DNA of 64,000 bases from an uncultured Pedobacter sp. (GTDB lineage: Bacteria; Bacteroidota; Bacteroidia; Sphingobacteriales; Sphingobacteriaceae), in contig NZ_CAJYOJ010000065.1 of the NCBI RefSeq assembly GCF_913776295.1, forward strand, positions 32,813-96,812. The letters run 5' to 3'. Position 1 is the first letter of the stretch. Each line of letters starts with the position of its first letter. The position numbers and the translations under genes are program-made. This document shows, one piece after another, positions 5,750 through 58,427 of this stretch. The notes under the pieces are model-generated. The model did not search any database. It was not told the DNA's origin and saw nothing but the letters and a program-made list of their open reading frames with translations.

Positions 5750-5827
5750 AGTCATTAGTCCATAGTCAGGTAGTAATCCACTCGCCGCTTAAGACTCATG
5801 ACTGGAGACTTCCGACTCAAGACTCAA
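5750..5827. repeat. Heptamer-periodic inverted array (AGTC x3 / GACT x5)
   Basis: AGTC at 5750, 5757, 5764; GACT at 5793, 5800, 5807, 5814, 5821. Confidence 0.85.
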
Positions 5828-7018
5828 ATGCAGATTACTCAGAAACTATCCCGGACAGACATCTTGCTCATGGCTTTTTGCACAGGCCTAATTGTTGCCA
5901 ATATTTATTACTGCCAGCCATTGGTAATCTTGATTGCAAAAGATTTTGACCTTACCGAGCCTGTTGCCGGGAAGATTACCTACCTTACGCAGATTGGTTA
6001 CGCTTTAGGCCTTTTCCTTTTAGTGCCACTTGGCGATATGTTTGAACGTAAAAAACAGATCCTGGTGATTACCGGCCTTGCCATTTTAGCTTTACTGGCT
6101 GCTGCCGTTTCGCAAAGCTTTTTTATACTGGAAGCGGCCTCCATCTTAATCGGTGCCTGCTCTATTGTACCTCAGTTGATATTGCCATTGGCAGCTAATT
6201 TAAGTACCGATGAAAATCGGGGAGCCAATATTGGCATGATTATGAGCGGTTTGCTGGTGGGGATCTTAGCCTCACGCGCAGTAAGTGGCAGCATTGGCTT
6301 TTGGCTGGGTTGGCGGGCGGTGTATTATATGGCCGCCGGAATTTGTGGACTGCTTATTTTTTTAATGGCCAAACGCTTTCCTCAAAGTTACCCTCATTTT
6401 AAAGGCTCGTATAAAGAACTCATGCGTTCGATGTTTGGGTATATCAAAACACAACCTGCCTTAAGGGAAACTTCGATCATTAATTTTCTGGCTTTTGCCA
6501 TTATCAGTGCTTTCTGGACCACCATGGTATTATTTCTGGCTAATCCACCCTTTAATTTCCAAACGTTGCAGATTGGCCTATTTGGAATTGCCGGAGCAGC
6601 GGGCGCATTGGCTGCACCGCTGGTTGGAAAATTAAGCGATGGAAACAATCCGCGTAAGAACTTAATGATTGGTTTTGTACTGCAACTCATCAGTATCGCT
6701 TTGTTTTATTTTACAAACAGCCATTTGTATCTTTTTGTAATTGGTATTGTGCTGATCGACATCGGACAGCAAGCAATACATGTAACCAATCAAACCCGTA
6801 TTTACACCTTAATACCAGAAGCCAGAAACCGGCTGAACACCATTTTTATGTCGGTGAGTTTTATTGGCGCCAGCTGTGGCTCGGCACTGGGTTTATGGCT
6901 TTGGGACTAGGGCGGTTGGGCTTTATTCTGTTATGGAATGACAGGTATCATTATACTTAATATTTTAATATATCAGTTTTACGGGAAGAAAAATCACAAT
7001 TTAAACAATCCCTTATAA
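5828..7018 (+). pseudogene. MFS transporter with a premature TAG at 6908-6910
   Basis: Likely start ATG 5828 (MQITQKLS). After TAG the frame continues GGWALFCYGMTGIIILNILIYQFYGKK...* to 7018, a further hydrophobic helix. The truncated 5828-6910 product may still be made. Confidence 0.65.
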
Positions 7019-7023
7019 AGTTT

Positions 7024-7626
7024 ATGAAATCTAAAAACGTAATCAAAACACTTTCAGTATTGTTAGTCTCTCTGTCCATTTTTGGTAAAGCAAAAGCTCA
7101 AGACAGTACAAATGTAGCGCAGCCAACAGAAGTAAAATCGCTTAATAAAATAAGGTTGAGTCTTCTCTCGCTACATTATGAACGGGAACAAAAAATAGGA
7201 AAACTCATCACACTTTATGGAGGTGCAGGATTGGCTGGTACTTTTCTAATAGAATACAATTATAATTACATGGCTGGAGATAAAACCAAAACCTACTTTG
7301 ATCTGGCACCAAACCTGTACGCAGGAATCAGAAAATATTACCATTTTGATAACAGGATAAAAAAAGGAAAAAAAACCATTAATAACGCTTCTAATTATTT
7401 TGGACTAGACGTAAGCAGTTATTTTTCTCCCTTAATTAAAGGTGGCAATCTCAATCAATACCATGTGGCAAATTGGGAGATGGGAATTACCCCGCAGTGG
7501 GGTTTTCAACGCAGCATCGGCAAGAAAACAAATTTTGAGCTTTCATTGGGTCCAAATATTCGCATCAATAAATATCAAACCTATTATGGCGTTGATGGCC
7601 GGATAGGCTTTAGCTTTTTGTTATAA
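7024..7626 (+). CDS. Hypothetical secreted / outer-membrane beta-barrel-like protein
   Basis: Signal peptide ending AKAQD, alternating aromatic beta-strand pattern, C-terminal RIGFSFLL. Confidence 0.7.
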   Translation: MKSKNVIKTLSVLLVSLSIFGKAKAQDSTNVAQPTEVKSLNKIRLSLLSLHYEREQKIGKLITLYGGAGLAGTFLIEYNYNYMAGDKTKTYFDLAPNLYAGIRKYYHFDNRIKKGKKTINNASNYFGLDVSSYFSPLIKGGNLNQYHVANWEMGITPQWGFQRSIGKKTNFELSLGPNIRINKYQTYYGVDGRIGFSFLL

Positions 7627-7628
7627 TT

Positions 7629-8039
7629 ATGGTTCAAATTGAACAAATATTCCCCTCACTAACCTGGCGGATCAGGCATGAGACGATGTACCCTGAATTA
7701 CCCTTTGACAGCGTAAAGCTTGCCGATGATTTTGAGGGCATCCACTTTGGGTTATACCTCGATCATAAGTTGACAGGAGTAGTTTCTTTATTTTATGAAG
7801 GAGATGTGTATCAGTTCCGTAAACTGGCCATTTTACCCGGTGCTCAAAAAGCAGGTTTGGGTACACAGTTAATGGCTTATATCCTCGATTTTTGTAAAAT
7901 TCAAAAAGCGACAAAACTATGGTGCAATGCACGTGTAAATGCTAAGGAATTTTATTTTAAATTTGGCTTCCTTGAAACGGATCAAACCTTTTTTAAAGAT
8001 GGTTACGATTTTGTGATCATGGAAAAAGAACTATCATAA
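7629..8039 (+). CDS. GNAT family N-acetyltransferase
   Basis: FRKLAILPGAQKAGLG acetyl-CoA motif; WCNARVNAKEFY. Confidence 0.9.
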   Translation: MVQIEQIFPSLTWRIRHETMYPELPFDSVKLADDFEGIHFGLYLDHKLTGVVSLFYEGDVYQFRKLAILPGAQKAGLGTQLMAYILDFCKIQKATKLWCNARVNAKEFYFKFGFLETDQTFFKDGYDFVIMEKELS

Positions 8040-8105
8040 TCATTAACAAGACGGACAAACGCATCACGCCATGCGCTTTGCACCATGCTATAAAACAAAT
8101 AACAT

Positions 8106-9221
8106 ATGGCTAAGAAAAAAGACGAAGAAAAGAAAAAACATGTTGCAGTAGTTACCAAAAAGTCGCTGCAGTTTCTCGAAGAATACATCAATAACCCTGC
8201 TCCCACCGGTTATGAATGGGAAGGACAAAAACTTTGGTTAAATTATTTAAAACCGTATATAGACGAACATTTCATCGATAATTACGGTACTGCTGTAGGT
8301 GTGATTAACCCTAAAGCTGATTTTAAAGTGGTTATAGAAGCCCATGCAGATGAAATTTCCTGGTATGTAAACTACATTACCAGCGACGGCTTAATTTATG
8401 TCATCCGCAATGGCGGTTCTGACCATCAGATTGCACCTTCTAAACGGGTGAACATCCATACCGAGAAAGGTTTGGTTAAAGCGGTATTCGGCTGGCCGGC
8501 TATTCATACACGTCATGGAGAGAAAGAACAGGCTCCGGAATTAAAAAACATCTTTTTGGATTGCGGTTGTACCTCAAAAGAAGAAGTAGAAAAATTAGGC
8601 ATCCATGTGGGCTGTGTAATTACCTACGAAGATGAGTTTATGGTGTTGAACGACCGCTATTATGTTGGTCGCGCTTTAGATAACCGTGTGGGTGGTTTTA
8701 TGATTGCCGAAGTAGCCCGTTTATTAAAAGAAAACAAGAAAAAGCTTCCTTTTGGTTTGTACATTGTAAACTCGGTACAGGAAGAAATCGGTTTGCGTGG
8801 TGCCGAGATGATTGCCCAGCGCATTAAACCGAATGTGGCCATTATTACCGATGTAACACACGATACCACTACGCCAATGATCAATAAAAACGTTCAGGGA
8901 GATTTATCGGCAGGTAAAGGTCCTGTTGTTTCTTATGCACCAGCTGTACAAACCAATTTAAATAAACTATTGATCCAAACGGCCGAGAAAAACCACATCC
9001 CATTTCAACGTCAGGCCTCATCACGTTCTACCGGAACTGATACGGATGCTTTTGCTTACTCAAATGGCGGGGTACCATCGGCATTAATTTCGCTGCCATT
9101 ACGTTATATGCATACTACGGTAGAGATGGTGCATAAAGAGGATGTTGACAATGTAATCAGCCTGATTTATGAAAGCTTATTGAACATTAGCAACGGTCAG
9201 GACTTCAGATCATTTAAATAA
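8106..9221 (+). CDS. M42 family metallopeptidase
   Basis: AHADEI, RALDNRVG, VQEEIGLRGA, GTDTDA and YMHT metal-ligand motifs. Confidence 0.93.
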   Translation: MAKKKDEEKKKHVAVVTKKSLQFLEEYINNPAPTGYEWEGQKLWLNYLKPYIDEHFIDNYGTAVGVINPKADFKVVIEAHADEISWYVNYITSDGLIYVIRNGGSDHQIAPSKRVNIHTEKGLVKAVFGWPAIHTRHGEKEQAPELKNIFLDCGCTSKEEVEKLGIHVGCVITYEDEFMVLNDRYYVGRALDNRVGGFMIAEVARLLKENKKKLPFGLYIVNSVQEEIGLRGAEMIAQRIKPNVAIITDVTHDTTTPMINKNVQGDLSAGKGPVVSYAPAVQTNLNKLLIQTAEKNHIPFQRQASSRSTGTDTDAFAYSNGGVPSALISLPLRYMHTTVEMVHKEDVDNVISLIYESLLNISNGQDFRSFK

Positions 9222-9487
9222 TGAAAAAATTAAATCACCGGAAGATCGTGATCAACACCTTATTAAAGGTTTTGCTTATGATTGTGGTTATCTTTATCCT
9301 TAACTCCTGGCCAAGCATAAAACAGAGTTTTGCTGGTAACGCACCACCTTTGCATTACTGGCTGGATCATAGCTTTAAAGTAAGTAACATCATCCTTATT
9401 TTAGGATTTGGTGTTTATTTTTATTACAAAGATTTAATGAATCAAAAAGAACTGATTGAAAATTCAAAAGTCTCAGATCAGCATTAA
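9221..9487 (+). CDS. Small hypothetical membrane protein
   Basis: 88 aa with two hydrophobic segments; start overlaps the M42 stop. Confidence 0.75.
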   Translation: MKKLNHRKIVINTLLKVLLMIVVIFILNSWPSIKQSFAGNAPPLHYWLDHSFKVSNIILILGFGVYFYYKDLMNQKELIENSKVSDQH

Positions 9488-23224: not shown

Positions 23225-23260
23225 AAAAAAGCGTCCCTGAATTTAATCAGGAACGCTTTC
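23225..23260 (-). terminator. dnaK terminator
   Basis: aagcgtccctga/tcaggaacgctt stem with an A run on the plus strand. Confidence 0.75.
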
Positions 23261-23310
23261 TATATTTAGATCTTCGGACTTTACGGACCTCAGACTTTAA
23301 GACTTTAAGA

Positions 23311-25218
23311 CTATTTCTTATCGTCTTCTTTTACTTCTTCAAAATCAACGTCAGTAACATTATCGCCACCTTGAGCTTGTCCATCAGCTTGTGGTTGTTC
23401 ACCACCCTGAGGTTGCTCTCCAGCTTTGTACATTTCTTCTGATGCCACGTTCCAGGCAGCTTGTAATTCAGCCGAAGCCGCATCGATATCTGCGAAATTA
23501 CGTGACGAGTGTGCTGCTTTTAATTTCTCTAAACCAGCTTCAATTGGTGCTTTTTTATCAGCAGATAATTTGTCACCAAACTCTTTCAATTGTTTCTCCG
23601 TTGAGAAAATTAAAGCATCAGCACCGTTAATTTTATCAGCTTCTTCTTTTTGCTTCGCATCATCTGCAGCATTCGCTTCCGCTTCTTCTTTCATTTTTTT
23701 GATTTCAGCATCAGTTAAACCTGAAGATGCCTCGATACGGATTTTTTGCTCTTTACCAGTAGCTTTATCTTTAGCACTTACGTGTAAGATACCGTTGGCA
23801 TCAATATCGAATGATACTTCAACCTGAGGCACACCACGAGGTGCTGGTGGAATACCATCTAAAATGAAACGGCCAATGGTACGGTTCTGAGCAGCCATCG
23901 GACGCTCACCTTGTAAAATGTGGATTTCTACCGAAGGCTGGTTATCAGCTGCAGTGGAGAAGGTTTCCGATTTTTTAGTTGGGATCGTAGTGTTAGACTC
24001 AATTAATTTAGTCATTACACCACCCATCGTTTCAATACCTAATGATAAAGGCGTAACGTCTAATAACAATACATCTTTCACATCACCAGTTAATACACCA
24101 CCTTGAATAGCAGCACCAATCGCTACCACCTCATCAGGATTAACGCCTTTGCTTGGCTCTTTACCGAAGAAAGCTTTAACCGCTTCCTGAATAGCAGGAA
24201 TACGTGTAGAACCACCTACCAGGATAATTTCGTCGATATCACCTGTGCTTAAACCAGCGTTTTTCAAAGCAGATTTACAAGGATCGATAGTACGTTTAAT
24301 TAAGCTATCAGCTAATTGCTCAAATTTAGCACGAGATAATGTACGTACCAAGTGTTTAGGGCCACTAGCATCAGCAGTAATGTATGGTAAATTAATTTCA
24401 GTTGAAGTAGTGCTTGATAACTCAATTTTAGCTTTCTCAGCAGCTTCTTTTAAACGTTGCAACGCCATTGGATCTTTAGAAAGGTCCATGTTGTTTTCTG
24501 ATTTAAACTCCTGAGTTAACCAATCGATAATGATGTGGTCAAAGTCATCACCACCTAAGTGCGTATCACCATCGGTAGATTTTACTTCGAAAACGCCATC
24601 ACCCAATTCCAGTACAGAAACGTCATGCGTACCACCACCACAGTCAAACACCACAATTTTCATGTCTTTGTGTGCTTTATCTAAACCATAAGCTAAAGCA
24701 GCTGCAGTTGGCTCGTTAATGATACGTTTCACAGATAAACCTGCAATCTCGCCAGCTTCTTTAGTCGCCTGACGTTGCGCATCATTAAAATAAGCTGGTA
24801 CGGTAATTACCGCCTCAGTTACTTCCTGTCCTAAGAAATCTTCGGCAGTTTTTTTCATTTTTTGCAAAATCATTGCAGAAATCTCTTGTGGAGTGTATTT
24901 TCTGTCGTCGATTTCAACACGTGGTGTATTGTTGTCTCCTTTTACTACTTTATAAGGTACGCGTCCAGCCTCTTTCGCACTTTCGTCATAGCTGCTACCC
25001 ATAAAGCGTTTAATTGAATATATCGTTTTTGTTGGGTTGGTTATAGCCTGACGTTTAGCAGGCTCGCCAACTTTACGCTCACCGTTTTCTGCAAAAGCAA
25101 CAATAGACGGTGTAGTACGTTTACCCTCACTGTTTGCGATAACTACAGGCTCATTGCCCTCCATTACGCTCACGCAAGAGTTTGTTGTTCCTAAGTCTAT
25201 TCCAATAATTTTTCCCAT
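23311..25218 (-). CDS. dnaK: Chaperone DnaK (Hsp70)
   Basis: [19 protein letters not shown] and LVGGSTRIP signatures. Confidence 0.99.
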
Positions 25219-25390: not shown

Positions 25391-25418
25391 AAAGGGCAAA
25401 GTTTAAAGCTCAGGTATT
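25391..25418. repeat. Heptamer-periodic array (AAAG core)
   Basis: aaagggc aaagttt aaagctc aggtatt. Confidence 0.55.
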
Positions 25419-27898: not shown

Positions 27899-27916
27899 TG
27901 CTATTGATTTGAAATA

Positions 27917-27924
27917 CAAAGATA
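27917..27924 (-). promoter_or_regulatory. -7 promoter element
   Basis: Minus-strand TAtcTTTG. Confidence 0.55.
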
Positions 27925-34442: not shown

Positions 34443-34447
34443 ATCTA

Positions 34448-40051: not shown

Positions 40052-40130
40052 TTTTTATTGTTTTTGATAGTGGTTTCCTTTCCTGATTCACATCGGGATG
40101 GGACCTGCTATCGGTTAAAATTCTTTTTTA

Positions 40131-40200
40131 GTATTAAGACATAAGTATCAAGTATCAAGAAACCATTCCGTCTTGATACTTGATACCCTGTACCTGATAC
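40131..40200. repeat. Heptamer-periodic inverted array with a 16-bp perfect stem
   Basis: gtattaa gacataa gtatcaa gtatcaa / ttgatac ttgatac cctgtac ctgatac. Confidence 0.9.
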
Positions 40201-40206
40201 TTTATA

Positions 40207-46025: not shown

Positions 46026-46643
46026 TTATTTGTCTAAGATTACGTAAGAACCTTTAGCTCCTGGAATGGAACCACTAACTACTAATAGGTTTTGCTCAGC
46101 ATAAACTTTCAAAACCTGTAAGTTTTGAATTTTTACCCTGTCTCCACCTGTTCTTCCTGCCATGCGCATTCCTTTGAATACACGTGAAGGAAATGATGAT
46201 GCTCCCAATGAACCTGGGGCACGTAAACGGTTATGCTGACCGTGAGTCTGCATACCAACACCGGCAAATCCGTGGCGTTTTACAACACCTTGAAAACCTT
46301 TACCTTTTGAGGTACCTACAACATCAACAAAATCGCCTTCTGCAAATGCATCTACAGTTACAACATCACCTAAGCTAAGTGCAGTTGTAAATGAGTTGAA
46401 TTCTACCAGCTTGCGTTTTGGAGTTGTGTTTGCTTTCGCGAAATGGCCTTTTAACGGCTGAGAAGTGTTTTTCTCTTTTTTCTCATCGTATCCCAACTGA
46501 ACAGCTGAATACCCGTCTTTTTCTTCGGTCTTTACTTGTGTAACTACACAAGGCCCAGCTTCGATTACAGTACAAGGAATGTTTCTTCCTTCTGCATCGA
46601 AAATACTGGTCATTCCTACTTTTTTTCCAATAATTCCTGACAT
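46026..46643 (-). CDS. rplC: 50S ribosomal protein L3
   Basis: [12 protein letters not shown] start at 46643; GKGFQG. Confidence 0.99.
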
Positions 46644-46720
46644 TTTATCTTTTCTTTTTAACACCCATCGAAGCAGTAGGGCTTCGTTCAAGGTGGTTGT
46701 ACATCCCCCGAAAGGGACGG

Positions 46721-46751
46721 CAAAGATAGACAAGAATTATTAATTTTCAAA
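46721..46751 (-). promoter_or_regulatory. Dedicated rplC promoter (-33/-7)
   Basis: Minus strand TTTG-N19-TAtcTTTG, the canonical Bacteroidota arrangement. Confidence 0.85.
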
Positions 46752-47020
46752 TAGTTAGCTAAATATTTTTTCAAATAAATTGCTGATATGATGGGATTTA
46801 GCCTAATAATGAAAGATAATATGCTATTAGAACATTTAAAAGGATAGCTATAAACCTGACTAAAAGCAATTTAATCCATATTTCAGGCGTAAAAAAGGGC
46901 GAATCTATTCAAATATTTGCTATCTATGATACATCACTTTTATCTGCGGCAAAAGATCAAATATTGCATTTCGCAACAAGAATATTTTAAATCTTGGTCA
47001 TTATGTAAATTATTGAAAAA

Positions 47021-47416
47021 TCAATGTGCAATCCCGCCATTCAGGCTGATGGTTATAATAGCCAAAATAATAAATCCGATCAGTACATAAAGGTAATCGC
47101 GCTCAATTAAAAAGCTAAAGATGGCGAAAACGATACGCGCAATCGGTGTAAAAATGAGCATCAATATGCCAAACTGTACAATAGCATCACCCTGAAAACT
47201 AGTTACTCCTTTAAATATAGCCAAAATAGAAGAAAGCTTACCGACTTCAGGCTTAAAAACTTTATAATCAGTAATGGCTCCTTTATTATGGATGAGGAAA
47301 ATGGCACCACCGATTAATACAATAGCCATGGAAATGATTACACCGGCACGTAACAATGTACCGAGAATTACCTGAATATCCTTATCGTTCAGATTTTCTT
47401 TTTTTGCTGTATCCAT
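47021..47416 (-). CDS. DUF1634 family membrane protein
   Basis: LLRAGV, QFGILMLIFTPIARIV, ERDYLY; coupled to a TauE gene. Confidence 0.85.
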   Translation of the reverse strand: MDTAKKENLNDKDIQVILGTLLRAGVIISMAIVLIGGAIFLIHNKGAITDYKVFKPEVGKLSSILAIFKGVTSFQGDAIVQFGILMLIFTPIARIVFAIFSFLIERDYLYVLIGFIILAIITISLNGGIAH

Positions 47417-48249
47417 TATAATCCACTTATTCCTTTATAAATCATCTGCAATGCCAGAAAGGTAACTACAATGGCAAATACCATTTTAAGTTTATCGGTT
47501 TTGGCCTTTACCAATACTTTCGAGCCAACTGTTGCGCCGGTTAAAACACCAATGCATACCGGCATGGCAATGCCAGGATCAATCTGGCCCCGGTGCAGAT
47601 AAACCACTGCACTGGCTGCTGCCGTAACCCCCATCATAAAATTACTGGTTGTGGTTGATACCTTAAAGGGTAATCGCATAATATTATCCATTGCAATTAC
47701 CTTCAGGGCCCCACTCCCAATGCCCAGCAAACCTGATAAGGTTCCGGCGAAAAGCATCATCAAAAAACCTCCCGGAACATGTTTTACCGAGTATGAACGA
47801 TTTATGCCCTTATCAGGGTAAGATCCGTTAAGCTTAAAAAATCTGGCCCATTTATCGGTATCATCCAAAGTAGTGTGATCTACCTTTTTCTTTAAAGTCA
47901 TGATTGCCGAAAAGATTAAAATACAGCCAAATAAAATAGCGATATAGTTTGCATTAAGGTAAACGGCTACAATTGCGCCGCAAATGGCACCTATAGTGGT
48001 TGCAATTTCTAAAAACATCCCGATCCGGATATTGGTGATGCCCTCTTTTACATAAGCAGCAGCCGAGCCTGAAGAAGTAGCAATAACCGAAACAATGGAT
48101 GCACCAATAGCATAGTGGATGTCAACACCTAAAGCCAGTGTAAGTAACGGTATAATAATAACCCCTCCACCTAAACCAGTAAGCGAGCCTAGTAATCCAG
48201 CTAAAAAAGCGCCTAATAAAACAATAAGGGTAAACAGCAATACCGACAT
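47416..48249 (-). CDS. Sulfite exporter TauE/SafE family protein
   Basis: GLGGGVII, SVIATSSGSA, GLLGIGSG, TTTSNFMMGVT. Confidence 0.9.
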   Translation of the reverse strand: MSVLLFTLIVLLGAFLAGLLGSLTGLGGGVIIIPLLTLALGVDIHYAIGASIVSVIATSSGSAAAYVKEGITNIRIGMFLEIATTIGAICGAIVAVYLNANYIAILFGCILIFSAIMTLKKKVDHTTLDDTDKWARFFKLNGSYPDKGINRSYSVKHVPGGFLMMLFAGTLSGLLGIGSGALKVIAMDNIMRLPFKVSTTTSNFMMGVTAAASAVVYLHRGQIDPGIAMPVCIGVLTGATVGSKVLVKAKTDKLKMVFAIVVTFLALQMIYKGISGL

Positions 48250-48326
48250 GTTGACAAATATAAGGCACTTGTCTGGGCGAAACGAAGGATCTGCGGAATA
48301 AAATAAAGTCTATATGTTATATGGAT

Positions 48327-48399
48327 GATGTAAGATGTGTGATGAAAATGGAAAAGGTTAAAATGGAAAACATAATGCCATCCATCTTACATTTTACAT
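48327..48399. repeat. Heptamer-periodic inverted array (GATG / CAT)
   Basis: GATG at 48327, 48334, 48341; CAT at 48383, 48390, 48397. Confidence 0.65.
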
Positions 48400-49655
48400 T
48401 ACTTACCCAATCTCTTTATCATCTCGGCACTCAAATCCCTGCCATCATTCAGCCGGTTGGCAAAAAATGATTTGGCCGCTTCAAAATGTTCCTTGTAACC
48501 CTTCAAATCGCCGTAACCGATAATGGATGCCCACTCATGCACCGCGGTATGGAATTCGAGATCATCGCCACGGATTGATTTGTCATATAATGCCGTATGG
48601 ATAGATTCTTCCAGCATAACCTCATTTTTAAAAAGGTATTCGGCAATGCCCAGCCTTAATTTGAAAGGCGGTGTCTGGCAGATCAGGTTATCGTAAGGAT
48701 TTACACCCATTTTATACCAGGCATACACCATACTCAATAAACTAAGGTGCGAATTGGGTTTCTGTTTATGGTCCGCATCAGACAGGCTAAACTCTTTCAT
48801 GATGTTATCATCCAGCAATAAAAGCGAACGGCTTTCATGGAAAACGAAATCGCGGGCCAGATAAATTTTCTCCCTGAATTCCTTTTCATTTTCACAGATC
48901 ATCAGCTTAAACAGTTCAGACTCTGCCTGTGCATAATATTTAACCTGTTTTTGCGCATAAGGATTTAGAATGGCCAAACCGGCATAGATGTGCGATTTAT
49001 AGCTAAAAATCCTTAGGGTAGTGAGAATCTTTACGTTATCAATTCCACCTGCATAAGCAGGATTATCCCAGGGAAAGAAACCGGCATTTTTCCAGGCAGA
49101 GCCCATGCTCTCAAAACCCATATGCGTTACCGCCTGCGTATCAGCCACAATACGGTCATGCTCGCGGTAATCATCCATCTCAATAATCTTCGATTTTAAA
49201 GATTGATAGACTTCCAATGCCTGTGCATAAACTTCATCGGTTGCGCGGTGACGCACCACTACAAGCGTTTGTCCTTCAGAGCTGAATGCCGGACCGTGCA
49301 AAGAATGGCAGGTTACAATCTGGGTATCCAGGGGAAGGTGTTTTTCAAAAGCAGCAATTTCGGGGTGTTTGACCGATGTTTGGCCCGAAACAATTGCACC
49401 ATATTTGGTGGAGCGTGCAAAAGTTGCCACCACTTCATCAATTTTCTCGGCTTCAACGCAGTAAATGATAAAATCAGATTTACGTGCCACTTCATGGCCA
49501 TCAATCAAAACCTCAATCCCTTTAGGTTCAAGCTCATTTTTTAAATCCGTAAAACGTAAAGGCATATCCGCCCCACATACCTTATAACCTGCGTTTACAA
49601 ACGAAAGAGCATATAGTTTGCCCATATCGCCCATACCAATAATTCCTATTTGCAT
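48399..49655 (-). CDS. tyrA: Prephenate dehydrogenase (long, fungal Tyr1-like type)
   Basis: GIIGMGDMG Rossmann fold, GQTSVK, CHSLHGP, HDRIVADTQAVTH; 418 aa. Confidence 0.88.
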   Translation of the reverse strand: MQIGIIGMGDMGKLYALSFVNAGYKVCGADMPLRFTDLKNELEPKGIEVLIDGHEVARKSDFIIYCVEAEKIDEVVATFARSTKYGAIVSGQTSVKHPEIAAFEKHLPLDTQIVTCHSLHGPAFSSEGQTLVVVRHRATDEVYAQALEVYQSLKSKIIEMDDYREHDRIVADTQAVTHMGFESMGSAWKNAGFFPWDNPAYAGGIDNVKILTTLRIFSYKSHIYAGLAILNPYAQKQVKYYAQAESELFKLMICENEKEFREKIYLARDFVFHESRSLLLLDDNIMKEFSLSDADHKQKPNSHLSLLSMVYAWYKMGVNPYDNLICQTPPFKLRLGIAEYLFKNEVMLEESIHTALYDKSIRGDDLEFHTAVHEWASIIGYGDLKGYKEHFEAAKSFFANRLNDGRDLSAEMIKRLGK

Positions 49656-49825
49656 GAAACAAATGTAACCTATCGTAAATAAATTTATAATAAAAGTTAG
49701 ATAAAATTGTTATTTAGAATGTTAAACCAAAATAATTTTATCGATTTGCCAAAATCTTAACCCATTTTACAGAGCGCAAAACGGATAAAAATGTAGTTTT
49801 ACATGCTAATACCTATATTTAAACT

Positions 49826-50437
49826 ATGCAAAAAATTAAACACACCTTATTGTTTTTAGGCGCTATGCTATTTTTAAACACTGCGTTTGCGCAAACCGCT
49901 CCCGACACTACAAAAAACACTGATCCTTCGCTAAATGGTCAGTATCAGTTCATGTTAAAAAAATCTAAAAGTTTGTATGGCGCGAAACTGATCAACCCAA
50001 ACCGTTTATCCGCTTTGTGGAAAAGTGTGAATGATACACTGAAAAAGGAACGCAAAAAATTGCAGGAAGCCAGGCAGGAAATTAAAGCACAAGCCGGCAA
50101 TATTTCAAGTTTAAAAGGCGAGGTTACCGGAAAAGAAAACTCACTGGCCAATGCTACAGCCTCGGTTAACGAAATTAAGTTTTTAGGAATTTCATTTAAC
50201 AAGGGCACTTATAACACCATTGTCTGGACCATTATTATTGTGCTGGGCATTGGCTTGGCTTTTGTTATTTTTCAATCCGGAAAATTAAGACATGAGGCTA
50301 AGTACAGAACTGAACTTTACCAGGAAGTAGCCGACGAATTTCAGGCACATAAGGTAAAGGCAAAAGATAAAGAAATGAAACTGGCACGTGAACTACAGGA
50401 CGAGAGAAATAAATGGGACGAAAGTAGAGGAAGATAA
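49826..50437 (+). CDS. Conserved hypothetical protein (signal peptide, coiled coil, TM helix)
   Basis: Signal peptide AFAQ, coiled coil, TM segment, cytoplasmic ARELQDERNK tail. Confidence 0.8.
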   Translation: MQKIKHTLLFLGAMLFLNTAFAQTAPDTTKNTDPSLNGQYQFMLKKSKSLYGAKLINPNRLSALWKSVNDTLKKERKKLQEARQEIKAQAGNISSLKGEVTGKENSLANATASVNEIKFLGISFNKGTYNTIVWTIIIVLGIGLAFVIFQSGKLRHEAKYRTELYQEVADEFQAHKVKAKDKEMKLARELQDERNKWDESRGR

Positions 50438-50680
50438 CATATCATAGCGCTTCCGGAACCATGCGAAATAGTTTGAATTAGTGTAAGAAGGCAACACCTG
50501 ACACCATTATACACTGATAAAAGGATTTGCTACCGGTGGTTTATCACACTTAGAAAAGTACATTTTTCCGTAAAAATGCGCTCAAAGCGAGATGCAAACC
50601 TTTTTATTCCAAATAGAAGAGAAGCACATGATGCCTTTGTAAAAACCATGACAAATGCTTTCTAAAAGATAAAAATTAAA

Positions 50681-50933
50681 AACCTGAACTCGATAATTAT
50701 TCAACTAAAATACTGCCTTATAAACGACCCGTCTCCTACCGATTCATCTTGCTAAACTTGTTTTACAAATAGAAATAATATTTTCAATGGCCTTGTAGCT
50801 ACATCGTGGTCAGCATCTTTTTAGCAGGGAAGACCCTGAAATGAATCCGGTTGCTATCGGATCAGAGTGACGGCATCTTAATCAAAAAATCCATATAAAC
50901 TACCTGGAGGCAACTATTAATCGAATTCAGGTT
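50681..50933. mobile_element. Candidate non-autonomous element (MITE-like) bounded by 14-bp terminal inverted repeats
   Basis: aacctgaactcgat (50681-50694) vs atcgaattcaggtt (50920-50933), 13/14 complementary; no ORF inside. Confidence 0.4.
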
Positions 50934-50963
50934 AAAAGCAATATCAATTATCAAGTTAAAAAA

Positions 50964-52307
50964 CTAGGTTTCAGAAGGGAACGATATTCCCTTGATATTC
51001 CGGTATAAATCTACAGCATAGAGGTCTGTCATTCCGGAAACAAAGTCTAGCACACTCTGTATAATAGAATAAATATCGGTCAAATCGGTATGATATTGTT
51101 TAGGAATAAGTTTAACCAGTTTTCTGTAATAGTGTGTATTGTTATGAATAAGTGCCGGAACAAACTCTTCCAGTAAACCGGCCATAATTTTATAACCCGC
51201 CACCTCTTTCTGTATTACTGAAGAGAAATTATATATACGCTCCACGGAAATTTTTTCTACCGCTTTCCAGGCCGAAATATAGGGTTCGGGCAGTAAATCA
51301 GTTAAGCTATAATTAAGATCACCCTTTAATAGCTTTTCTTGTTCGTTAAAGAATATCGCTGCACATTGATTTGTTAAGGTATTAATGGCTTTAGCACGCA
51401 GCAGACCAATTTTGGCATCATCATCTTCATAATCGTTTTTTAAACGTTCTTCTATAGTTGTTGAATTGGCAAAAGGCATGAGGTAACCTTTTACTTCTTC
51501 ATAAGAAAGGATCTTGAGTCGATGCGCATCTTCAAGGTCGATGATGCTGTAACAGATGTCATCTGCAGCTTCTACCAGATAAACCAGAGGATGGCGTTTA
51601 TAAATGAGGTACTCGCTGTCTTCTTTTGCCAGGCGAAGTTCGGTGGCAATCTTTTTGAAACTTTCCTCTTCCGATTGAAAGAAACCGTATTTTTTACGGT
51701 GCAGCAAACCTTTCTGTTTACCTACAATAGAAGCACAGGGATATTTAGCTATAGAGGCCAGGGTTGAATAGGTAAGCGCATACGCATCATTTCCCTTTCC
51801 TTTTAATGGATGCGTAAGGATCCGGATAGCATTGGCATTCCCTTCAAAATTAATTAAATCGTGCCATTGCGATTCACTCATCTCTTTCTGGTAAACCTTA
51901 CCATCACCATCGGTAAAATAGCGCGAAATGGCTGCTTCTCCCGAATGTCCAAATGCCGGGTTGCCCAAATCATGCGCCAGTGCAGCAGCAGCTACAATAT
52001 TACCTACTTCGTTAATTAAGGGAACATCTTTAGTGAGTTCTGGTTGATATTCTTCTATACTTTTAAGAAATATGTTTGCCATGGAACGGGCCACACTTGC
52101 CACTTCTAAACTATGTGTTAGGCGATTGTGTACAAAAACACTTCCAGGCAAAGGAAAAACCTGCGTTTTATTCTGCAACCTTCTAAATGGAGACGAAAAG
52201 ATCAACCGGTCATAATCACGCTGAAAATCAGAACGTGCCCGATCTGTACTGGCACCATATTGCTCTTGTCCGTATCTTTTATTCGAAAGTAAGTATTTCC
52301 ACTCCAT
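50964..52307 (-). CDS. dgt: Deoxyguanosinetriphosphate triphosphohydrolase (HD domain)
   Basis: FRRLQNKTQV, HNRLTHSLEV, AHDLGNPAFGHSGE, EAADDICY. Confidence 0.93.
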   Translation of the reverse strand: MEWKYLLSNKRYGQEQYGASTDRARSDFQRDYDRLIFSSPFRRLQNKTQVFPLPGSVFVHNRLTHSLEVASVARSMANIFLKSIEEYQPELTKDVPLINEVGNIVAAAALAHDLGNPAFGHSGEAAISRYFTDGDGKVYQKEMSESQWHDLINFEGNANAIRILTHPLKGKGNDAYALTYSTLASIAKYPCASIVGKQKGLLHRKKYGFFQSEEESFKKIATELRLAKEDSEYLIYKRHPLVYLVEAADDICYSIIDLEDAHRLKILSYEEVKGYLMPFANSTTIEERLKNDYEDDDAKIGLLRAKAINTLTNQCAAIFFNEQEKLLKGDLNYSLTDLLPEPYISAWKAVEKISVERIYNFSSVIQKEVAGYKIMAGLLEEFVPALIHNNTHYYRKLVKLIPKQYHTDLTDIYSIIQSVLDFVSGMTDLYAVDLYRNIKGISFPSET

Positions 52308-52445
52308 TTATCACGCTGGCATTTAAAATCTGGCGCAAGTTAAACAAAACGCGAAAATGGTAAAGCATAATGCTTTAAGTAAAATTTGTATTACATCAAT
52401 TAAAAGATATATCTATATTTGCGGCAAACAAACAAACAAACAACA

Positions 52446-53093
52446 ATGAAGAAAATCTTATTAACGCTTGCAGTCTTATGCTGCTTTACGGTTTTGACTA
52501 AAGCACAATTTGAAGGCTCAAAACAAATCTTTGAAAGTCCGAAATTAAAGGATGCGATCAAAACACACAAAACTGTAGCTATTTTACCCTTTGCGGTAAA
52601 AATCTCTTACAGAAAACAACCCAAAAACTTTAGCGCTGAAGCGAATAAAAGTCAGGAAGAATCAATGGCCAGGTCTATCCAGGCAAGTATGTATACTTTT
52701 TTGCTGAGAAAAGCTTCAGACTATACCGTAACTTTTCAGGATGTTGACAAAACAAATATCCTGTTGAAAAAAGCTGGCGTTCTGGATAAGTTAGATGAAA
52801 CAACCAAGGATGAATTAGCCAAGATACTTGGTGTTGATGCGGTGATTGGTGGTCGTTTCGAAACCGAGCAAACGAAATCAGAAGCCGGTGCTATTGCCTC
52901 GGCTGTTTTATTTGGGGGTTTTGGAGGAAAATCCGGAACAGGCACCATGTTCTTAACCATCAATAATGGATCAGACGGTGAATTGTTATGGCGTTTCTTT
53001 AAAACAATGGATGATAACATTATGAGTTCTACCGATGATATGGTGGAACGGATGATGCGGAAAATATCTCGGAATTTCCCTTATAGAAACTAA
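52446..53093 (+). CDS. Hypothetical secreted protein
   Basis: MKKILL signal peptide; VAILPF..LGVDAVI alpha/beta pattern. Confidence 0.75.
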   Translation: MKKILLTLAVLCCFTVLTKAQFEGSKQIFESPKLKDAIKTHKTVAILPFAVKISYRKQPKNFSAEANKSQEESMARSIQASMYTFLLRKASDYTVTFQDVDKTNILLKKAGVLDKLDETTKDELAKILGVDAVIGGRFETEQTKSEAGAIASAVLFGGFGGKSGTGTMFLTINNGSDGELLWRFFKTMDDNIMSSTDDMVERMMRKISRNFPYRN

Positions 53094-53099
53094 AACAGG

Positions 53100-53126
53100 A
53101 GGCAGATAGAAATATCTGCCTTTATT
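53100..53126 (+). terminator. Intrinsic terminator
   Basis: aggcagata-gaaa-tatctgcct plus T-rich tract. Confidence 0.7.
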
Positions 53127-53201
53127 GTTTACCAGCTTTACTGATTGATTATAATCAAACCATTTAGCTTCTGCCCTGTTTATTGATAAAATGATACAGA
53201 C

Positions 53202-53564
53202 ATGAAAACGAGTATATACAACAAAAAGGAACATATGGAGGGATATGTAGGGTCAGGTGATGAGCAATCTGAAAAATCAGACGTGCAAAAAGCTTTAGAA
53301 CAAGCCAATGATACAAATATAGTAACGAGTTACGGCAAAGAACCTGGTGAATTGATTAAAGGAAATCCTTCAGCGAGAGATGGCAGAGATAACTCTGGTA
53401 CGCAAGGTAAAGATTCACTTAGTGATGATGCCTACAACAGCGTGGATAAAAACCCAACATTAAAGAGTGCTGAAAGTCATACCGGAAGTTCGTCTGAAGA
53501 TTTTAAAACAAAGCCCGATATTAATGAAGCTGATGAAAACCACGCATTAAATACTGGCATTTAA
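53202..53564 (+). CDS. Small acidic hydrophilic (likely disordered) protein
   Basis: 120 aa rich in D/E/S/G/N with almost no hydrophobic core. Confidence 0.75.
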   Translation: MKTSIYNKKEHMEGYVGSGDEQSEKSDVQKALEQANDTNIVTSYGKEPGELIKGNPSARDGRDNSGTQGKDSLSDDAYNSVDKNPTLKSAESHTGSSSEDFKTKPDINEADENHALNTGI

Positions 53565-53899
53565 CACCATAAGATTACTAAAACAGCATTGAGTTTATCA
53601 GTAAGATTCAGGATATATGGATAAAACAATTAAGCCATAATAACGATTGTGATCATGTCTACCTTATGTTTTTGAATCACAACCAGATATCAATTAACAT
53701 CTTAAAAAATTGACATATATCAATTCATTAAAACCATATCTCTTGCGTTTTGATGATAAGTTATTGAAATTAGCTCTGCCTTAGGATTCGCGACAAGCTA
53801 AAAATTAGAGAAGAACTATTAAGGGCTTTAGCTAGTTAATTGACACAATTCGGTTGTTGAATTCTAGATTACTTCCATCTACCGGGAAAGGCATAAACT

Positions 53900-53935
53900 T
53901 ATAAAGGGATTGTCAATGAGGATAATCCCTTTATA
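53900..53935 (-). terminator. Hairpin, probable terminator
   Basis: Perfect 12-bp stem tataaagggatt/aatccctttata next to the stop at 53942. Confidence 0.55.
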
Positions 53936-53941
53936 ATTAAT

Positions 53942-54235
53942 TTACAGATCTTTTCCATGTAAACCTTTGTCGTCGTTCTTATTTCTGTTTCCTATATCTT
54001 CACCCTGACTTAAATTCGCATTATTCAGACTTCCATTTACGTCTTGATTAACATCATCCTCTGCGCTTTTGTGAGCGGCCCCGGGTTCATCCTTACGCTT
54101 AAAATCAGCCCTTTTATGCCCGTAAGTAGCTTCTCCGTTATCCCACTCTATATCCTCCTCATTGTGATTAATCTCCTCATTAGGATTAATATTATTATTT
54201 TCATGATTTTCCATAGCGATTGATTTTGTAGACAC
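53942..54235 (-). CDS. Small acidic hydrophilic protein
   Basis: N/E/D-rich, 97 aa (alternative start at MENHE). Confidence 0.75.
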   Translation of the reverse strand: MSTKSIAMENHENNNINPNEEINHNEEDIEWDNGEATYGHKRADFKRKDEPGAAHKSAEDDVNQDVNGSLNNANLSQGEDIGNRNKNDDKGLHGKDL

Positions 54236-54333
54236 TCTTTTATAGGAACAATAGATACGACAGAAAGGTTTAATATTGAAACAATTATATACTCCAAGCC
54301 TTTGCTCTCTTCTATCGCCTTTAGTTAATTGTG

Positions 54334-54579
54334 CTAATTCACCCCTTTGCTTTGATCTATTGCTGTTTCACTATCCAAATCATCTTTCGTCAAACCATTT
54401 TCATCGCGGTGTTCCGGTGGGTTTTCCATCCTGCTTTCTTCCAAATCTGAAAAATCACTACCTTTCTGATTGGCTACTTCACCATGTGAAGAAGGCTTAT
54501 CTTTCCCTTCTTCCTTAGGATCAGCAAAATCCTGTCCTTCAACAGGTAATGCTTCTTGCTCTTTATCTTTATTCATCAT
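54334..54579 (-). CDS. Small acidic hydrophilic protein
   Basis: MMNKDKEQE..., D/E-rich; the ORF-track extension to 54630 runs up to the rpsJ terminator. Confidence 0.72.
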   Translation of the reverse strand: MMNKDKEQEALPVEGQDFADPKEEGKDKPSSHGEVANQKGSDFSDLEESRMENPPEHRDENGLTKDDLDSETAIDQSKGVN

Positions 54580-54628
54580 ATCAGTACAACCAGCCAGCTC
54601 AAGTTTTGTTTTAGAATTCGGGCTATAC

Positions 54629-54660
54629 AAAAAAAGGCCCCGATGTGCATCGGGACCTTT
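54629..54660 (-). terminator. Terminator directly after rpsJ
   Basis: aaaggccccgat/atcgggaccttt stem with an A7 run on the plus strand. Confidence 0.8.
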
Positions 54661-54679
54661 CCTGTTCTTTTAAAATCAG

Positions 54680-54985
54680 TTAAACTTTGATTTCAACTTC
54701 AACACCGCTAGGTAATTCAAGTTTCATTAATGCATCAACAGTTTTAGAGTTAGAGCTATAAATATCCAATAAACGTTTGTAAGCGCATAGTTGGAACTGC
54801 TCTCTAGCTTTTTTGTTTACGTGTGGAGAACGTAAAACAGTAAAGATTTTTTTCTCTGTAGGAAGTGGAATAGGACCACTCACCACTGCACCTGTAGGTT
54901 TAACAGTTTTTACAATTTTCTCAGCAGATTTATCTACTAAATTGTAATCGTAAGATTTTAACTTAATTCTGATTCTTTGGCTCAT
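54680..54985 (-). CDS. rpsJ: 30S ribosomal protein S10
   Basis: [31 protein letters not shown]. Confidence 0.99.
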
Positions 54986-55048
54986 CTTATTTTTAATTAT
55001 GGCTTCCTGTTAGAGCTATTAACAACAGAAACCGGATTTATCTTTAAA

Positions 55049-55123
55049 AAGGCGAATGGTTTAAGGTGTAAAGTTTAGGGCTTGAAAACCTTATACCTTA
55101 CGCCCTTTACCTTATACCTTAAT
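55049..55123. repeat. Heptamer-periodic inverted array (AAGG x5 / CCTT x5)
   Basis: aaggcga atggttt aaggtgt aaagttt agggctt / ccttata ccttacg cccttta ccttata ccttaat. Confidence 0.88.
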
Positions 55124-57237: not shown

Positions 57238-57254
57238 TATGTTTTTAGTATTGA

Positions 57255-57345
57255 TTCCACCGATTTAAAAGATTTCACCGATTATTTTGTGTAATCGGTG
57301 AATTCAATTTTATCTGTGTAATCCTATAATAATCTGTGTAATCTT
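57255..57345. repeat. TGTGTAATC-type repeat with an 11-bp palindrome
   Basis: ttcaccgatta/taatcggtgaa stem; tgtgtaatc at 57288, 57315, 57335. Confidence 0.75.
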
Positions 57346-57364
57346 ACTGGTCTGTTAATTCTAA

Positions 57365-57832
57365 TTAGAACCTGAAGTGAGAGAACGCTTTGTTAGCCTC
57401 AGCCATTTTGTGCGTATCCTCTTTCTTTTTAACAGCAGCACCTTCACCCTTAGCAGCAGCTACGATTTCACCAGCTAATTTTTCTTTCATCGTTTTTTCA
57501 CCACGACGACGAGCATATAAAATTAACCATTTCATACCTAAAGCTGTTTTACGCTCTGGTCTAACCTCAGTTGGAACCTGGAAGTTGGCACCACCAACAC
57601 GACGGGATTTAACCTCTACAGCTGGCATAATGTTAGTTAATGCACGTTTGAACACCTCTAAACCGTTTTCACCTGCTTTTTTCTCCGCAATTTCAACAGC
57701 ATCGTAAAAAATGGAGTAAGCGATAGATTTTTTTCCATCGTACATCATGTTGTTTACAAAACGGGTTACCTGAACATCATTAAATTTTGGATCAGGAAGA
57801 ATAATTCTCTTTTTTGGTTTTGACTTTCTCAT
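57365..57832 (-). CDS. rpsG: 30S ribosomal protein S7
   Basis: [29 protein letters not shown]. Confidence 0.99.
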
Positions 57833-57849
57833 TTCTTATTTCCTCCCGA

Positions 57850-58263
57850 TTATTTTTTCTTTCCTTTTGCAGGTGCGGCAGCTGCCTGACCTGGTTTAGG
57901 ACGTTTAGTACCATATTTAGAACGACGTTGGTTACGACCAGCCACGCCTGATGTATCTAACGCACCACGAATGATGTGGTAACGTACACCTGGTAAATCT
58001 TTAACACGACCACCACGGATCAATACGATGGAGTGCTCCTGTAAGTTGTGACCTTCTCCAGGGATGTAAGCATTCACCTCTTTACCGTTCGTTAAACGAA
58101 CACGGGCTACTTTACGCATTGCTGAGTTTGGTTTTTTAGGGGTAGTGGTGTACACACGTGTACATACACCTCTTCGCTGTGGACAGCTGTCCAACGCTGG
58201 AGACTTACTCTTGAACTCCAGTGCTACTCTACCTTTTCTAACTAATTGTTGAATGGTTGGCAT
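57850..58263 (-). CDS. rpsL: 30S ribosomal protein S12
   Basis: [17 protein letters not shown]. Confidence 0.99.
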
Positions 58264-58340
58264 TGTGCTTTTTTATGTTTTTTATTTAAAAAATTTACCG
58301 CTCCCCCGGCATCCTTACAGATAGCCCATAAAACGGACTG

Positions 58341-58371
58341 CAAAAGTAGAACAATTCTTTTTAAAAATCAA
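58341..58371 (-). promoter_or_regulatory. rpsL (str operon) promoter
   Basis: Minus strand TTG-N20-TActTTTG. Confidence 0.75.
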
Positions 58372-58385
58372 GGGGTTAGCATAAA

Positions 58386-58427
58386 AAGTTTTAAGTTGGC
58401 AATTGTTGGTTTTCAGTTGATGGTTAA
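58386..58427. repeat. Heptamer-periodic array (GTT core)
   Basis: aagtttt aagttgg caattgt tggtttt cagttga tggttaa. Confidence 0.7.

Follow-up and report, generated by a model that had tools for sequence, protein, structure and literature searches.

Heptamer arrays in the gene junctions of a Pedobacter contig

The stretch of DNA analysed here, referred to as the window, comprises 64,000 nucleotides (nt) from an uncultured Pedobacter sp. (contig NZ_CAJYOJ010000065.1, positions 32,813 to 96,812 of the forward strand) and has a GC content of 0.39. Its minus strand carries the str, S10, spc and alpha ribosomal-protein operons at approximately 31.5-58.3 kb, and the ribosomal protein S11 encoded there (33907-34296, minus strand) is 99% identical to that of Pedobacter punctiformis and identically encoded in many Pedobacter assemblies. 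Several gene junctions in and around these operons contain short arrays of degenerate heptamers, that is, tandem units of 7 nt in which a core recurs in phase, some of them facing an array of the complementary core. The individual arms and loci, in window coordinates, are as follows.

5747-5770, plus strand: stop-proximal arm AATAGTC ATTAGTC CATAGTC AGGTAGT (AGTC three times, from 5750), starting 3 nt past the stop of a carboxyltransferase gene (4203-5744)
5792-5826, plus strand: complementary arm AAGACTC ATGACTG GAGACTT CCGACTC AAGACTC (GACT five times, from 5793), ending 1 nt before the ATG (5828) of a major facilitator superfamily (MFS) gene, so that 5747-5826 occupies the carboxyltransferase-MFS spacer
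23270-23312, minus strand: unpaired AAGTC array with spacings of 8, 8 and 7 nt, directly past the dnaK stop
25391-25418, no strand assigned: AAAG three times in the divergent dnaK/DUF1304 region; marginal, may be chance
26793-26827, minus strand: five AAGTC heptamers that keep the reading frame of a methyltransferase gene (26699-27919), in its C-terminal linker, with GACT four times from 26800
32125-32158, minus strand: self-complementary GCGC heptamers TAGCGCC GTGCGCT TAGCGCA AAGCGTT directly past the rpoA stop (GCGC/CGC phased four to five times at 32127-32157)
34403-34447, minus strand: stop-proximal arm of the rpsM-rpsK spacer, TAGATAG ATGTGAG ATGTGAG ATATGAG ATGTGAT with a short local fold-back, of the KAGATNT family (ATCT four times from 34418)
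34342-34402, minus strand: interior between the rpsM-rpsK arms, conserved in Pedobacter, with an internal stem that has compensatory changes
34307-34341, minus strand: start-proximal arm of the rpsM-rpsK spacer, ATCTTAT ATCTCAA GTCTCAT ATCTAAA ATCT (AGA(T) five times from 34307), ending 10-11 nt before the rpsK ATG
40131-40206, minus strand: AAGTATC/GATACTT hairpin directly past the rpsN stop (5' arm at 40171-40203 and 3' arm at 40131-40160, on either side of a loop; GTATC/GATAC phased from 40136 and 40177), a member of a dispersed family
48314-48398, minus strand: TGTAARA units facing about eight CATnnnn units, directly past an oxidoreductase stop (ATG/GATG five times at 48314-48345, CAT units opposite)
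55046-55122, minus strand: arm of five TAAGGTA units and an ACCTTAN partner arm, directly past the fusA stop and 64 nt upstream of the rpsJ ATG (AAGG/CCTT phased at 55049-55123)
58386-58427, no strand assigned: site upstream of rpsL with GTT in phase in 6 of 7 units; marginal, without significant structure

The excess of period 7 is robust and sharp. A detector that requires three or more occurrences of the same non-homopolymer 4-mer, spaced at an exact lag, found 10 loci at lag 7 in the window, against 1.9±0.9 in 30 dinucleotide-preserving shuffles; with the same detector lags 5, 8, 10, 11, 13 and 14 were at background level in the window, and lags that are multiples of 3 were raised, the source being coding periodicity. 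For comparison we used a set of 80 related loci around rpsK, with one genome per species, to which 10 Pedobacter loci with identical S11 and 10 with identical S10 were added; statistics on related loci refer to about 90 loci, and labels such as L083 denote single loci or contigs. Over the window and the related loci a core-free detector (at least 64% lag matches across five units) called 162 arrays at lag 7 and 21, 2 and 0 at lags 8, 10 and 11, respectively, and related metagenome contigs, an independent set of 637 kb, gave 144 arrays at lag 7 as against 10-26 at lags 5, 8, 10 and 11. Plain lag-7 autocorrelation over all intergenic DNA, the measure put forward by an earlier sequence-only reading of the window, gives a weak excess (z=2.8), since arrays take up little of that DNA; the exact-core and core-free detectors give a clear one.

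That reading had reported exact 7-nt phasing at a series of sites. When the sequence is set out in rows of seven the phasing is present at 5750, 26800, 32125, 34307, 40131, 48327 and 55049, and Tandem Repeats Finder (TRF) independently calls period 7 at most of the sites. At 23277 the AAGTC repeat is real, with a period of 8/7 rather than an exact one and no partner, while the sites at 25391, 58386 and 18302 are marginal, lack partner or structure, and fit the approximately two loci expected by chance. The arrays are highly diverse, with 45 canonical heptamers among 65 arrays and many singleton families. Among the related rpsK loci the lag-7 excess is patchy, being pronounced in Pedobacter, Mucilaginibacter, Chitinophagaceae, Larkinella, several uncultured Bacteroidota and two Chloroflexota, and missing from most Flavobacteriales, most Bacteroidales and other phyla.

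With unbiased detection the conserved columns are mildly clustered within the heptamer (2.44 per array vs 2.23±0.06 expected). Given how small this clustering is, the pattern of a 4-nt core and three random positions was dropped as a signature of templated-plus-untemplated synthesis. A phased stop codon in each heptamer, which would place stops in three frames, was likewise set aside as too weak (34 stop triplets vs 19 reverse complements, with GAT and GTT equally frequent).

Placement, turnover and dispersal of the arrays

The solid arrays of the window are closely tied to stop codons: seven of nine start 0-7 nt past a stop on the transcribed strand (5747, 23270, 32125, 34307-34447, 40131, 48314 and 55046). 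Five of the nine have a complementary array downstream, giving imperfect hairpins in polycistronic mRNA, and four have none, including 32125 with its self-complementary core, 23277, and 26800, which lies inside a gene. The same placement recurs outside the window. Among 902 post-stop regions, recurrence of a 4-mer at lag 7 within the first 20 nt past the stop is 2.5%, compared with 0.5-0.6% for lags 5, 6, 9 and 10 at that position and 1-1.5% for lag 7 further downstream, and over the related loci lag-7 arrays are enriched 4-5 fold directly past stops. The inverted pairing that had been claimed for many loci is real, though it does not extend to every array: a partner with the reverse-complement core lies within 250 nt of 44 of 147 arrays (30%), against 8-11 of 147 (5-7%) for the reverse, complement and same-core controls.

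Between co-directional genes the pairs have a consistent geometry, the core of the 5' arm starting a median of 6 nt past the stop (at most 10 nt in 27 of 33 pairs) and the second arm lying either close to the next ATG (at most 20 nt in 15 of 31) or 60-137 nt away from it, a bimodal distribution. They are also polar: of 33 pairs, 29 have the G-richer arm on the side of the stop, and this order holds for 15 of the 16 informative taxa (p=5e-4). Arrays just past stops have G in excess of C in 43 cases vs 7, arrays just before starts have less G than C in 28 vs 7, and array-free spacers have the same G/C polarity in a weaker form. As to the genes concerned, the description of the arrays as fillers of spacers in highly expressed operons holds as regards housekeeping operons (those of ribosomal proteins in the window and, for members of the same family elsewhere, sdh, atp and rpoBC junctions) and fails for the coding array at 26800.

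Arrays of AACTTTA lie directly upstream of starts in an AT-rich Bacteroidota metagenome-assembled genome (L012, at 5998-6025, 4351-4373 and 9226-9250); we take this unit to resemble the 'epsilon' translational enhancer of phage T7 gene 10 (UUAACUUUA), possibly by coincidence. Separately, AGATNTG arrays occur in 39 viral contigs of IMG/VR (L186-L224), including high-GC ones. None of these has a complementary partner. Many of them, read on the opposite strand, are (CANATCT)n directly before an ATG; several such sites occur in some contigs, and some arrays exceed 15 perfect units.

Comparison of orthologous junctions shows rapid replacement, core family, copy number and presence all varying among loci that encode identical ribosomal proteins. 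In the Pedobacter loci with identical S11, the segment past the rpsN stop may be an AAGTATC/GATACTT or an AAAGC/GCTTT hairpin; in L083 it is a plain hairpin without heptamers. This rpsN-rpsH spacer is conserved in its 3' half, and a hairpin of some kind is present in 12 of 12 Pedobacter loci; its stem has one compensatory change from A-U to G-C in L082 and, in the L081 group, two changes compatible with G·U. Past rpoA, in the rpoA-rplQ spacer, the same set of loci has GCGC units, TTCAGTT with AATTGRA (paired via G·U), an unpaired AGTC array of five units, or nothing. In the rpsM-rpsK spacer KAGATNT and ANATCTC arms surround the conserved interior in all but L083, where the spacer is 18 nt long, and the arm lengths of different strains differ by steps of 7 nt. 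Among the loci with identical S10, one of five heptamer families stands past fusA, save in L093 and L098, where the conserved rpsJ leader hairpin alone remains. Contigs of related strains, with 95-97% identity in the genes, have unlike letters in place of the hairpin segments: 73 for the 76 letters of 55046-55121, 110 for the 106 letters of 34339-34444, and 446 instead of 48314-48398.

The coding array behaves in a comparable manner. The AAGTC heptamers of the window's methyltransferase linker have AAAG heptamers as their counterpart in P. punctiformis, and L083 has no heptamers and a linker shorter by 7 amino acids (21 nt); the presence of coding arrays with different cores implies that arrays arise at the DNA level and persist in genes only in frame. 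Past ndk in L170 (from approximately 1254 onward), the 3' arm of a GTATC hairpin consists of at least seven perfect TTGATAC units up to the contig end. This run has the appearance of a perfect array, similar to the short tandemly repeated repetitive (STRR) sequences of cyanobacteria, growing from a degenerate hairpin arm. Slippage had been among the mechanisms proposed for the arrays, and both the 7-nt indels between strains and the perfect arm of at least seven copies support slippage by whole units.

At least two families, AAGTATC and KAGATNT, are dispersed over unrelated sites. The hairpin that the window has between rpsN and rpsH shares a nearly identical core of 40-50 nt with those between fusA and rpsJ in L094 and L095, and a strict pattern search for the AAGTATC (GTATC) hairpin recovered 83 metagenome stretches falling into 37 upstream-gene clusters. 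The upstream genes include sdhA (16 contigs), fusA (12), atpA, atpD, rpoB, iscU, rpsN, tpiA, tkt, ndk and thrB, and the junctions include sdhA-sdhB, atpA-atpG and rpoB-rpoC. Of 73 copies, 54 have a gene stop that overlaps the hairpin or lies within 10 nt of it. In 31 of 51 there are 6-16 nt between the hairpin and the next ATG, and nearly all copies lie between co-directional genes, only one of 73 being between convergent ones. The arms are conserved and the loop is different at every site. Likewise, KAGATNT arms occur in three spacers of Mucilaginibacter L003 in addition to the rpsM-rpsK spacer of the window, with unrelated interiors, and as a short hairpin past fusA in L096 and L097. Elsewhere a single family occupies several spacers, as with TTGGA (L077, L071), AATT (L047) and AACTTT (L012), and L042 has two near-identical TCAGTNN/TAACTGA hairpins. 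The view that the arrays are not one mobile element is thus correct as to the number of families, but single families are multi-copy across sites, species and genera, which means that sequence is copied from one site to another. A scan of 20 window proteins revealed no transposase, and no clear target-site duplication is recognisable between filled and empty fusA-rpsJ sites.

The ribosomal-protein region contains further elements distinct from the arrays. The rpsK interior at 34342-34402 is probably a separate regulatory RNA that lies outside the repeat. Together with it, conserved leaders upstream of rpsH (40052-40125), rplQ (32055-32112) and rpsJ (54990-55045), all on the minus strand and without a match in Rfam, are kept across Pedobacter even where there is no heptamer hairpin; these leaders, which include TTTTAACCGATAGCAGGTCCC..GGAAACCACTATC before rpsH and CTGTTGTTAATAGCTCTAACAGG before rpsJ, are probably autoregulatory ribosomal-protein binding sites. 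The rpsG-fusA spacer (57238-57364, minus strand) is non-heptameric, with GATTACACAGAT at a spacing of 18 nt and a hairpin TTCACCGATT..AATCGGTGAA, and 93 of its letters are replaced by 93 unlike letters in related strains. A plain 12-bp hairpin with a T-run (33198-33226, minus strand), 11 nt past the rpsD stop and just upstream of rpoA, has the look of an attenuator or terminator internal to the alpha operon. Past the dnaK array, at approximately 23225-23262, stands a canonical terminator hairpin with its U-run. Approximately 8 kb separates rpsJ (54680-54985) from rplC (46026-46733), which makes the S10 operon of this organism a split one; the intervening unrelated genes (46734-54679) encode an HD-domain protein, an oxidoreductase, TauE, DUF1634 and the products of several open reading frames without Pfam matches.

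Possible origin and role of the arrays

The predicted folds of array-bearing spacers differ considerably in strength and in strand preference.

rpsM-rpsK: sense -49.3 kcal/mol (z -6.1), antisense -31.4
rpsN-rpsH: sense -30.8 kcal/mol (z -6.2), antisense -27.8
fusA-rpsJ: sense -23.4 kcal/mol, antisense -25.0
48314-48398: sense -14.9 kcal/mol, antisense -23.7
5747-5826: weak on both strands (sense z about -0.9), the predicted stem consisting of the 4-bp cores only
Chloroflexota L077, spacer 1: sense -39.9 kcal/mol, antisense -23.5
Chloroflexota L077, spacer 2: sense -33.1 kcal/mol, antisense -19.1

In L077 the arms TTGGARN and TCTAACN pair via G·U, an argument that pairing in this lineage takes place at the RNA level. 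Stop-adjacent structure is a general property of these spacers, and the heptamer arrays are one way of building it, since the first 60 nt of long spacers fold more stably than shuffles even without arrays (mean z -1.66, and -3.05 with arrays; -0.6 to -0.9 for the last 60 nt). The heptamer hairpins are non-terminators: no U-tract follows them, and a terminator scan matched the rplQ and rpsD-rpoA hairpins and no heptamer hairpin as a whole. A terminator or attenuator role was rejected on account of the missing U-tracts and of the location of most copies between co-directional genes of one operon. Rfam covariance models gave no match at the gathering score in the whole window and just two irrelevant matches below threshold in 31000-58600. 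One probable RNA contig from the Logan contigs of related strains spans the rpsM-rpsK spacer.

Our preferred explanation, to which we give an even chance of being right, is that the arrays are intercistronic palindromes similar to repetitive extragenic palindromic (REP) elements, with arms made of heptanucleotide microsatellites. Short degenerate microsatellites of 3-8 heptamer units form the arms of small palindromes in gene junctions, typically in the order stop codon, G-containing array within 0-10 nt, loop or site-specific interior, and complementary G-poor array, with the next start codon 6-20 nt past the second arm in about half of the cases. The arrays would begin and lengthen via heptanucleotide slippage, described as a general prokaryotic bias in the part of Mrazek 2007 that is summarised in PMC4679880. 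The inverted pairs would arise by fold-back or template-switch copying, or by means of an unknown mobilising activity, hence the likeness to REP elements. Such elements would be transcribed inside polycistronic mRNAs with the base of the stem within the footprint of the terminating ribosome, and their polarity, with the G-rich arm first and the G-poor arm beside the start, agrees with the general spacer polarity of these organisms. The hairpins appear to be at least tolerated and are probably kept, because a compact stem would hold stop and start close and would thereby maintain translational coupling and protect long spacers against Rho or RNases.

Several observations weigh against this explanation, both as regards copying and as regards selection at the RNA level. 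Neither a mobilising enzyme nor a target-site duplication nor a master copy was found for the dispersed families; loops that differ at every site are a poor fit to simple copy-paste transposition, and the conserved, site-specific interior between the arms of some pairs is not explained by a single insertion. Slippage alone leaves unexplained why period 7 is the sole one enriched and why the lineage distribution is patchy. The fold at 48314-48398 is stronger on the antisense strand, and the sense-over-antisense energy bias of array spacers is no larger than that of array-free spacers. At the level of the cores, the counts of G·U against C·A are 10 vs 8, giving no preference for the sense strand, and the variable triplets have no register-specific covariation on either strand (unit order permuted, 19 pairs). 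Finally, some arrays cannot be stems for want of a complementary partner, namely those at 23277, at 26800 and, in L090, the one made of AGTC units. A general argument for RNA alone was dropped in view of the wobble counts and of an energy bias equal to that of array-free spacers. Accordingly, the role as RNA stems that the sequence-only reading had suggested stays plausible from the position at stops, the G-rich arm coming first and the strong sense folds at some loci, and is not borne out by wobble, energy bias or covariation.

The alternative closest to the above dispenses with copying altogether: the elements would be purely functional RNA stems that evolved in situ, as coupling switches or mRNA stabilisers, with arms changing by 7-nt slippage. 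The constant presence of a hairpin between rpsN and rpsH, be it the non-heptamer version of L083, and the compensatory and G·U-compatible changes in its stem are in line with this proposal, as are the generality of stop-adjacent structure, the strand-specific polarity and the strong sense folds at several loci. However, in-situ evolution cannot yield near-identical hairpin cores at non-homologous sites, such as those shared by rpsN-rpsH and the fusA-rpsJ junctions of L094 and L095 and found in at least 35 more contexts. Moreover, relatives with identical S10 or S11 are wholly without the element (L083, L093, L098), and a general wobble or covariation signal is absent. We consider this alternative unlikely.

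A more far-reaching possibility is that the arrays constitute "stop-to-start zippers", a dedicated device widespread in Bacteroidota, Chloroflexota and possibly Cyanobacteria and Beggiatoaceae. The G-poor array beside the start may then serve as a Shine-Dalgarno-independent translation leader, and the complementary G-rich array at the upstream stop may mask this leader until the terminating ribosome melts the pairing. The arrays may in this case be written and propagated by an unknown activity with a 7-nt ruler and not by generic slippage. If true, zippers would enforce stoichiometric translation of the subunits of the ribosome, ATP synthase, succinate dehydrogenase (SDH) and RNA polymerase. 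Taken as a whole, we regard this reading as rather improbable.

A third possibility is that the arrays are periodic sites for a protein whose footprint sets the period, with a 7-nt register on RNA (OB folds of the cold shock protein (Csp) or S1 type) or a 7-bp register on DNA (ribbon-helix-helix (RHH) dimers). Omega repressor heptads, which may be direct or inverted, provide a precedent. Such a register would account for the enrichment of period 7 alone, with no shoulders at neighbouring periods, and for the partnerless G-poor arrays directly upstream of starts in L012, L047, L061 and the viral contigs. Binding by S1, Csp or CsrA has been proposed for the TAACTGA class of heptamer repeats, and CspB is reported to bind heptamer repeats with one protein per heptamer (PMC4679880). 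Against this stand the dozens of unrelated heptamers noted above, the inability of one sequence-specific protein to read both an array and its complement, the merely mild clustering of columns and the occurrence of arrays in coding DNA, and we judge the proposal distinctly improbable.

The arrays might also be purely neutral heptanucleotide microsatellites that accumulate where selection is weakest, their pairing and position being by-products. The dominance of heptanucleotides among long simple repeats of prokaryotes, attributed to polymerase slippage in Mrazek 2007 as far as it is related in PMC4679880, would fit, and so would the 7-nt indels, the perfect expansion, the many singleton families and a coding array tolerated only in frame in a variable linker. 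Nevertheless, reverse-complement partners are 4-5 times as frequent as in the controls, the arrays lie tight against stops with strand-specific polarity, identical families occupy many sites, and decay would spread mismatches evenly, yet the conserved columns are slightly clustered; a purely neutral origin is accordingly very doubtful. Chance, or a compositional artefact of AT-rich intergenic DNA, fits the marginal sites at 25391, 58386 and 18302 and the modest global autocorrelation, but it is refuted by the shuffles and the other-lag controls and has practically no likelihood.

The rules of placement, pairing, polarity, dispersal and replacement yield testable hypotheses in culturable soil bacteria, namely a coupling switch, shielding from Rho or RNases, a selfish palindrome or a 7-nt protein ruler, and they draw attention to a source of very rapid evolution, by whole units, within the cell's most conserved operons.

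Relationship to known repeats and palindromic elements

Heptanucleotide repeats of bacteria have been known since 1990, and we know of no accepted origin or function for them. The link to the STRR of cyanobacteria that the sequence-only reading had drawn is apt, given the tandem units of 7 nt, the TRF calls and the lag-7 excess. Both classes consist of tandem heptanucleotides that are mostly intergenic and form several families per genome. The window arrays, however, are not the near-perfect, many-copy named sequences of heterocystous cyanobacteria that characterise STRR: they have 3-8 degenerate units of other sequences, occur in Bacteroidota and Chloroflexota, are paired in approximately 30% of cases and are anchored at stops.

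The nearest published case is that of the TAACTGA heptamer direct repeats of Beggiatoaceae, Cyanobacteria and five Bacteroidetes, which are found inside ribosomal-protein operons among other places, often lie just upstream of starts and differ between strains by 7-nt indels (MacGregor 2015, PMC4679880). Part of the phenomenon, namely heptamers in Bacteroidetes and in ribosomal-protein operons, is thus already published (PMC4679880). The two classes share their location in gene junctions and ribosomal-protein operons and their 7-nt indels, and L042 has TAACTGA units, while the repeat itself (TAACTGATAACTGA, up to 2 mismatches) has no match in the window. The published set comprises 169 direct sets vs one inverted (PMC4679880), and stop-anchored inverted pairs, replacement of families at orthologous sites and arm polarity are not described in that study. 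In the literature we found no account of these three features, and none of such arrays in Sphingobacteriaceae.

A broader class is formed by the heptanucleotide long simple sequence repeats of Mrazek 2007, which, as cited in PMC4679880, dominate in many prokaryotes; period 7 is the commonest among units of 5-11 nt, units that are not multiples of 3 are kept out of genes, and the bias perhaps exists since approximately 7 nt contact the polymerase. The window arrays exceed expectation from composition at a period within this range and belong here in that respect, most of them being imperfect and the run of L170 perfect. In the form in which PMC4679880 conveys it, the class is defined by near-perfect repeats, and pairing, position and dispersed families lie outside its definition.

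Among palindromic elements, REP sequences, bacterial interspersed mosaic elements (BIME) and REP doublets forming hairpins (REPIN) are likewise short imperfect palindromes in multi-copy, genome-specific families. They are extragenic near the 3' ends of genes, transcribed within mRNAs and polymorphic in presence between relatives. The GTATC and KAGATNT families, being multi-copy imperfect palindromes at unrelated extragenic sites, conform to this description. They differ in their heptamer arms, site-specific loops and location at co-directional junctions, and no REP-associated tyrosine transposase (RAYT) is known here. With transposable elements of the miniature inverted-repeat type (MITEs) and Rickettsia palindromic elements the arrays share inverted-repeat ends, a dispersed, small and non-coding nature, and one array in frame in a gene; no target-site duplication was recognised on comparing filled and empty fusA-rpsJ sites, and they differ in having no known parent insertion sequence. 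The conserved interior that a MITE retains from such a parent was not found, loops and interiors differing at every site.

Two functional analogues can also be considered. Translational-coupling stems are known from the ribosomal-protein operons of E. coli and from phage MS2. As in those, the stem here would join the end of the upstream cistron to the next initiation region and could be opened by the terminating ribosome; the elements described here differ in their repeat-built arms and fast family replacement, and in that every second hairpin or so leaves 60-137 nt between its end and the start. The omega repressor of plasmid pSM19035 binds contiguous 7-bp heptads, direct and inverted, and operators of this RHH type have a similar geometry, though the window arrays lie inside operons past stops and not at promoters or centromeres. 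The best reading of these comparisons is that the window arrays extend the unexplained phenomenon of STRR, TAACTGA and heptanucleotide repeats to the Pedobacter group. What is new relative to the published accounts found is the anchoring at stops, the complementary partners, the G-rich-first polarity, the multi-site families with site-specific loops, and the replacement of one family by another at the junctions of species with identical ribosomal proteins.

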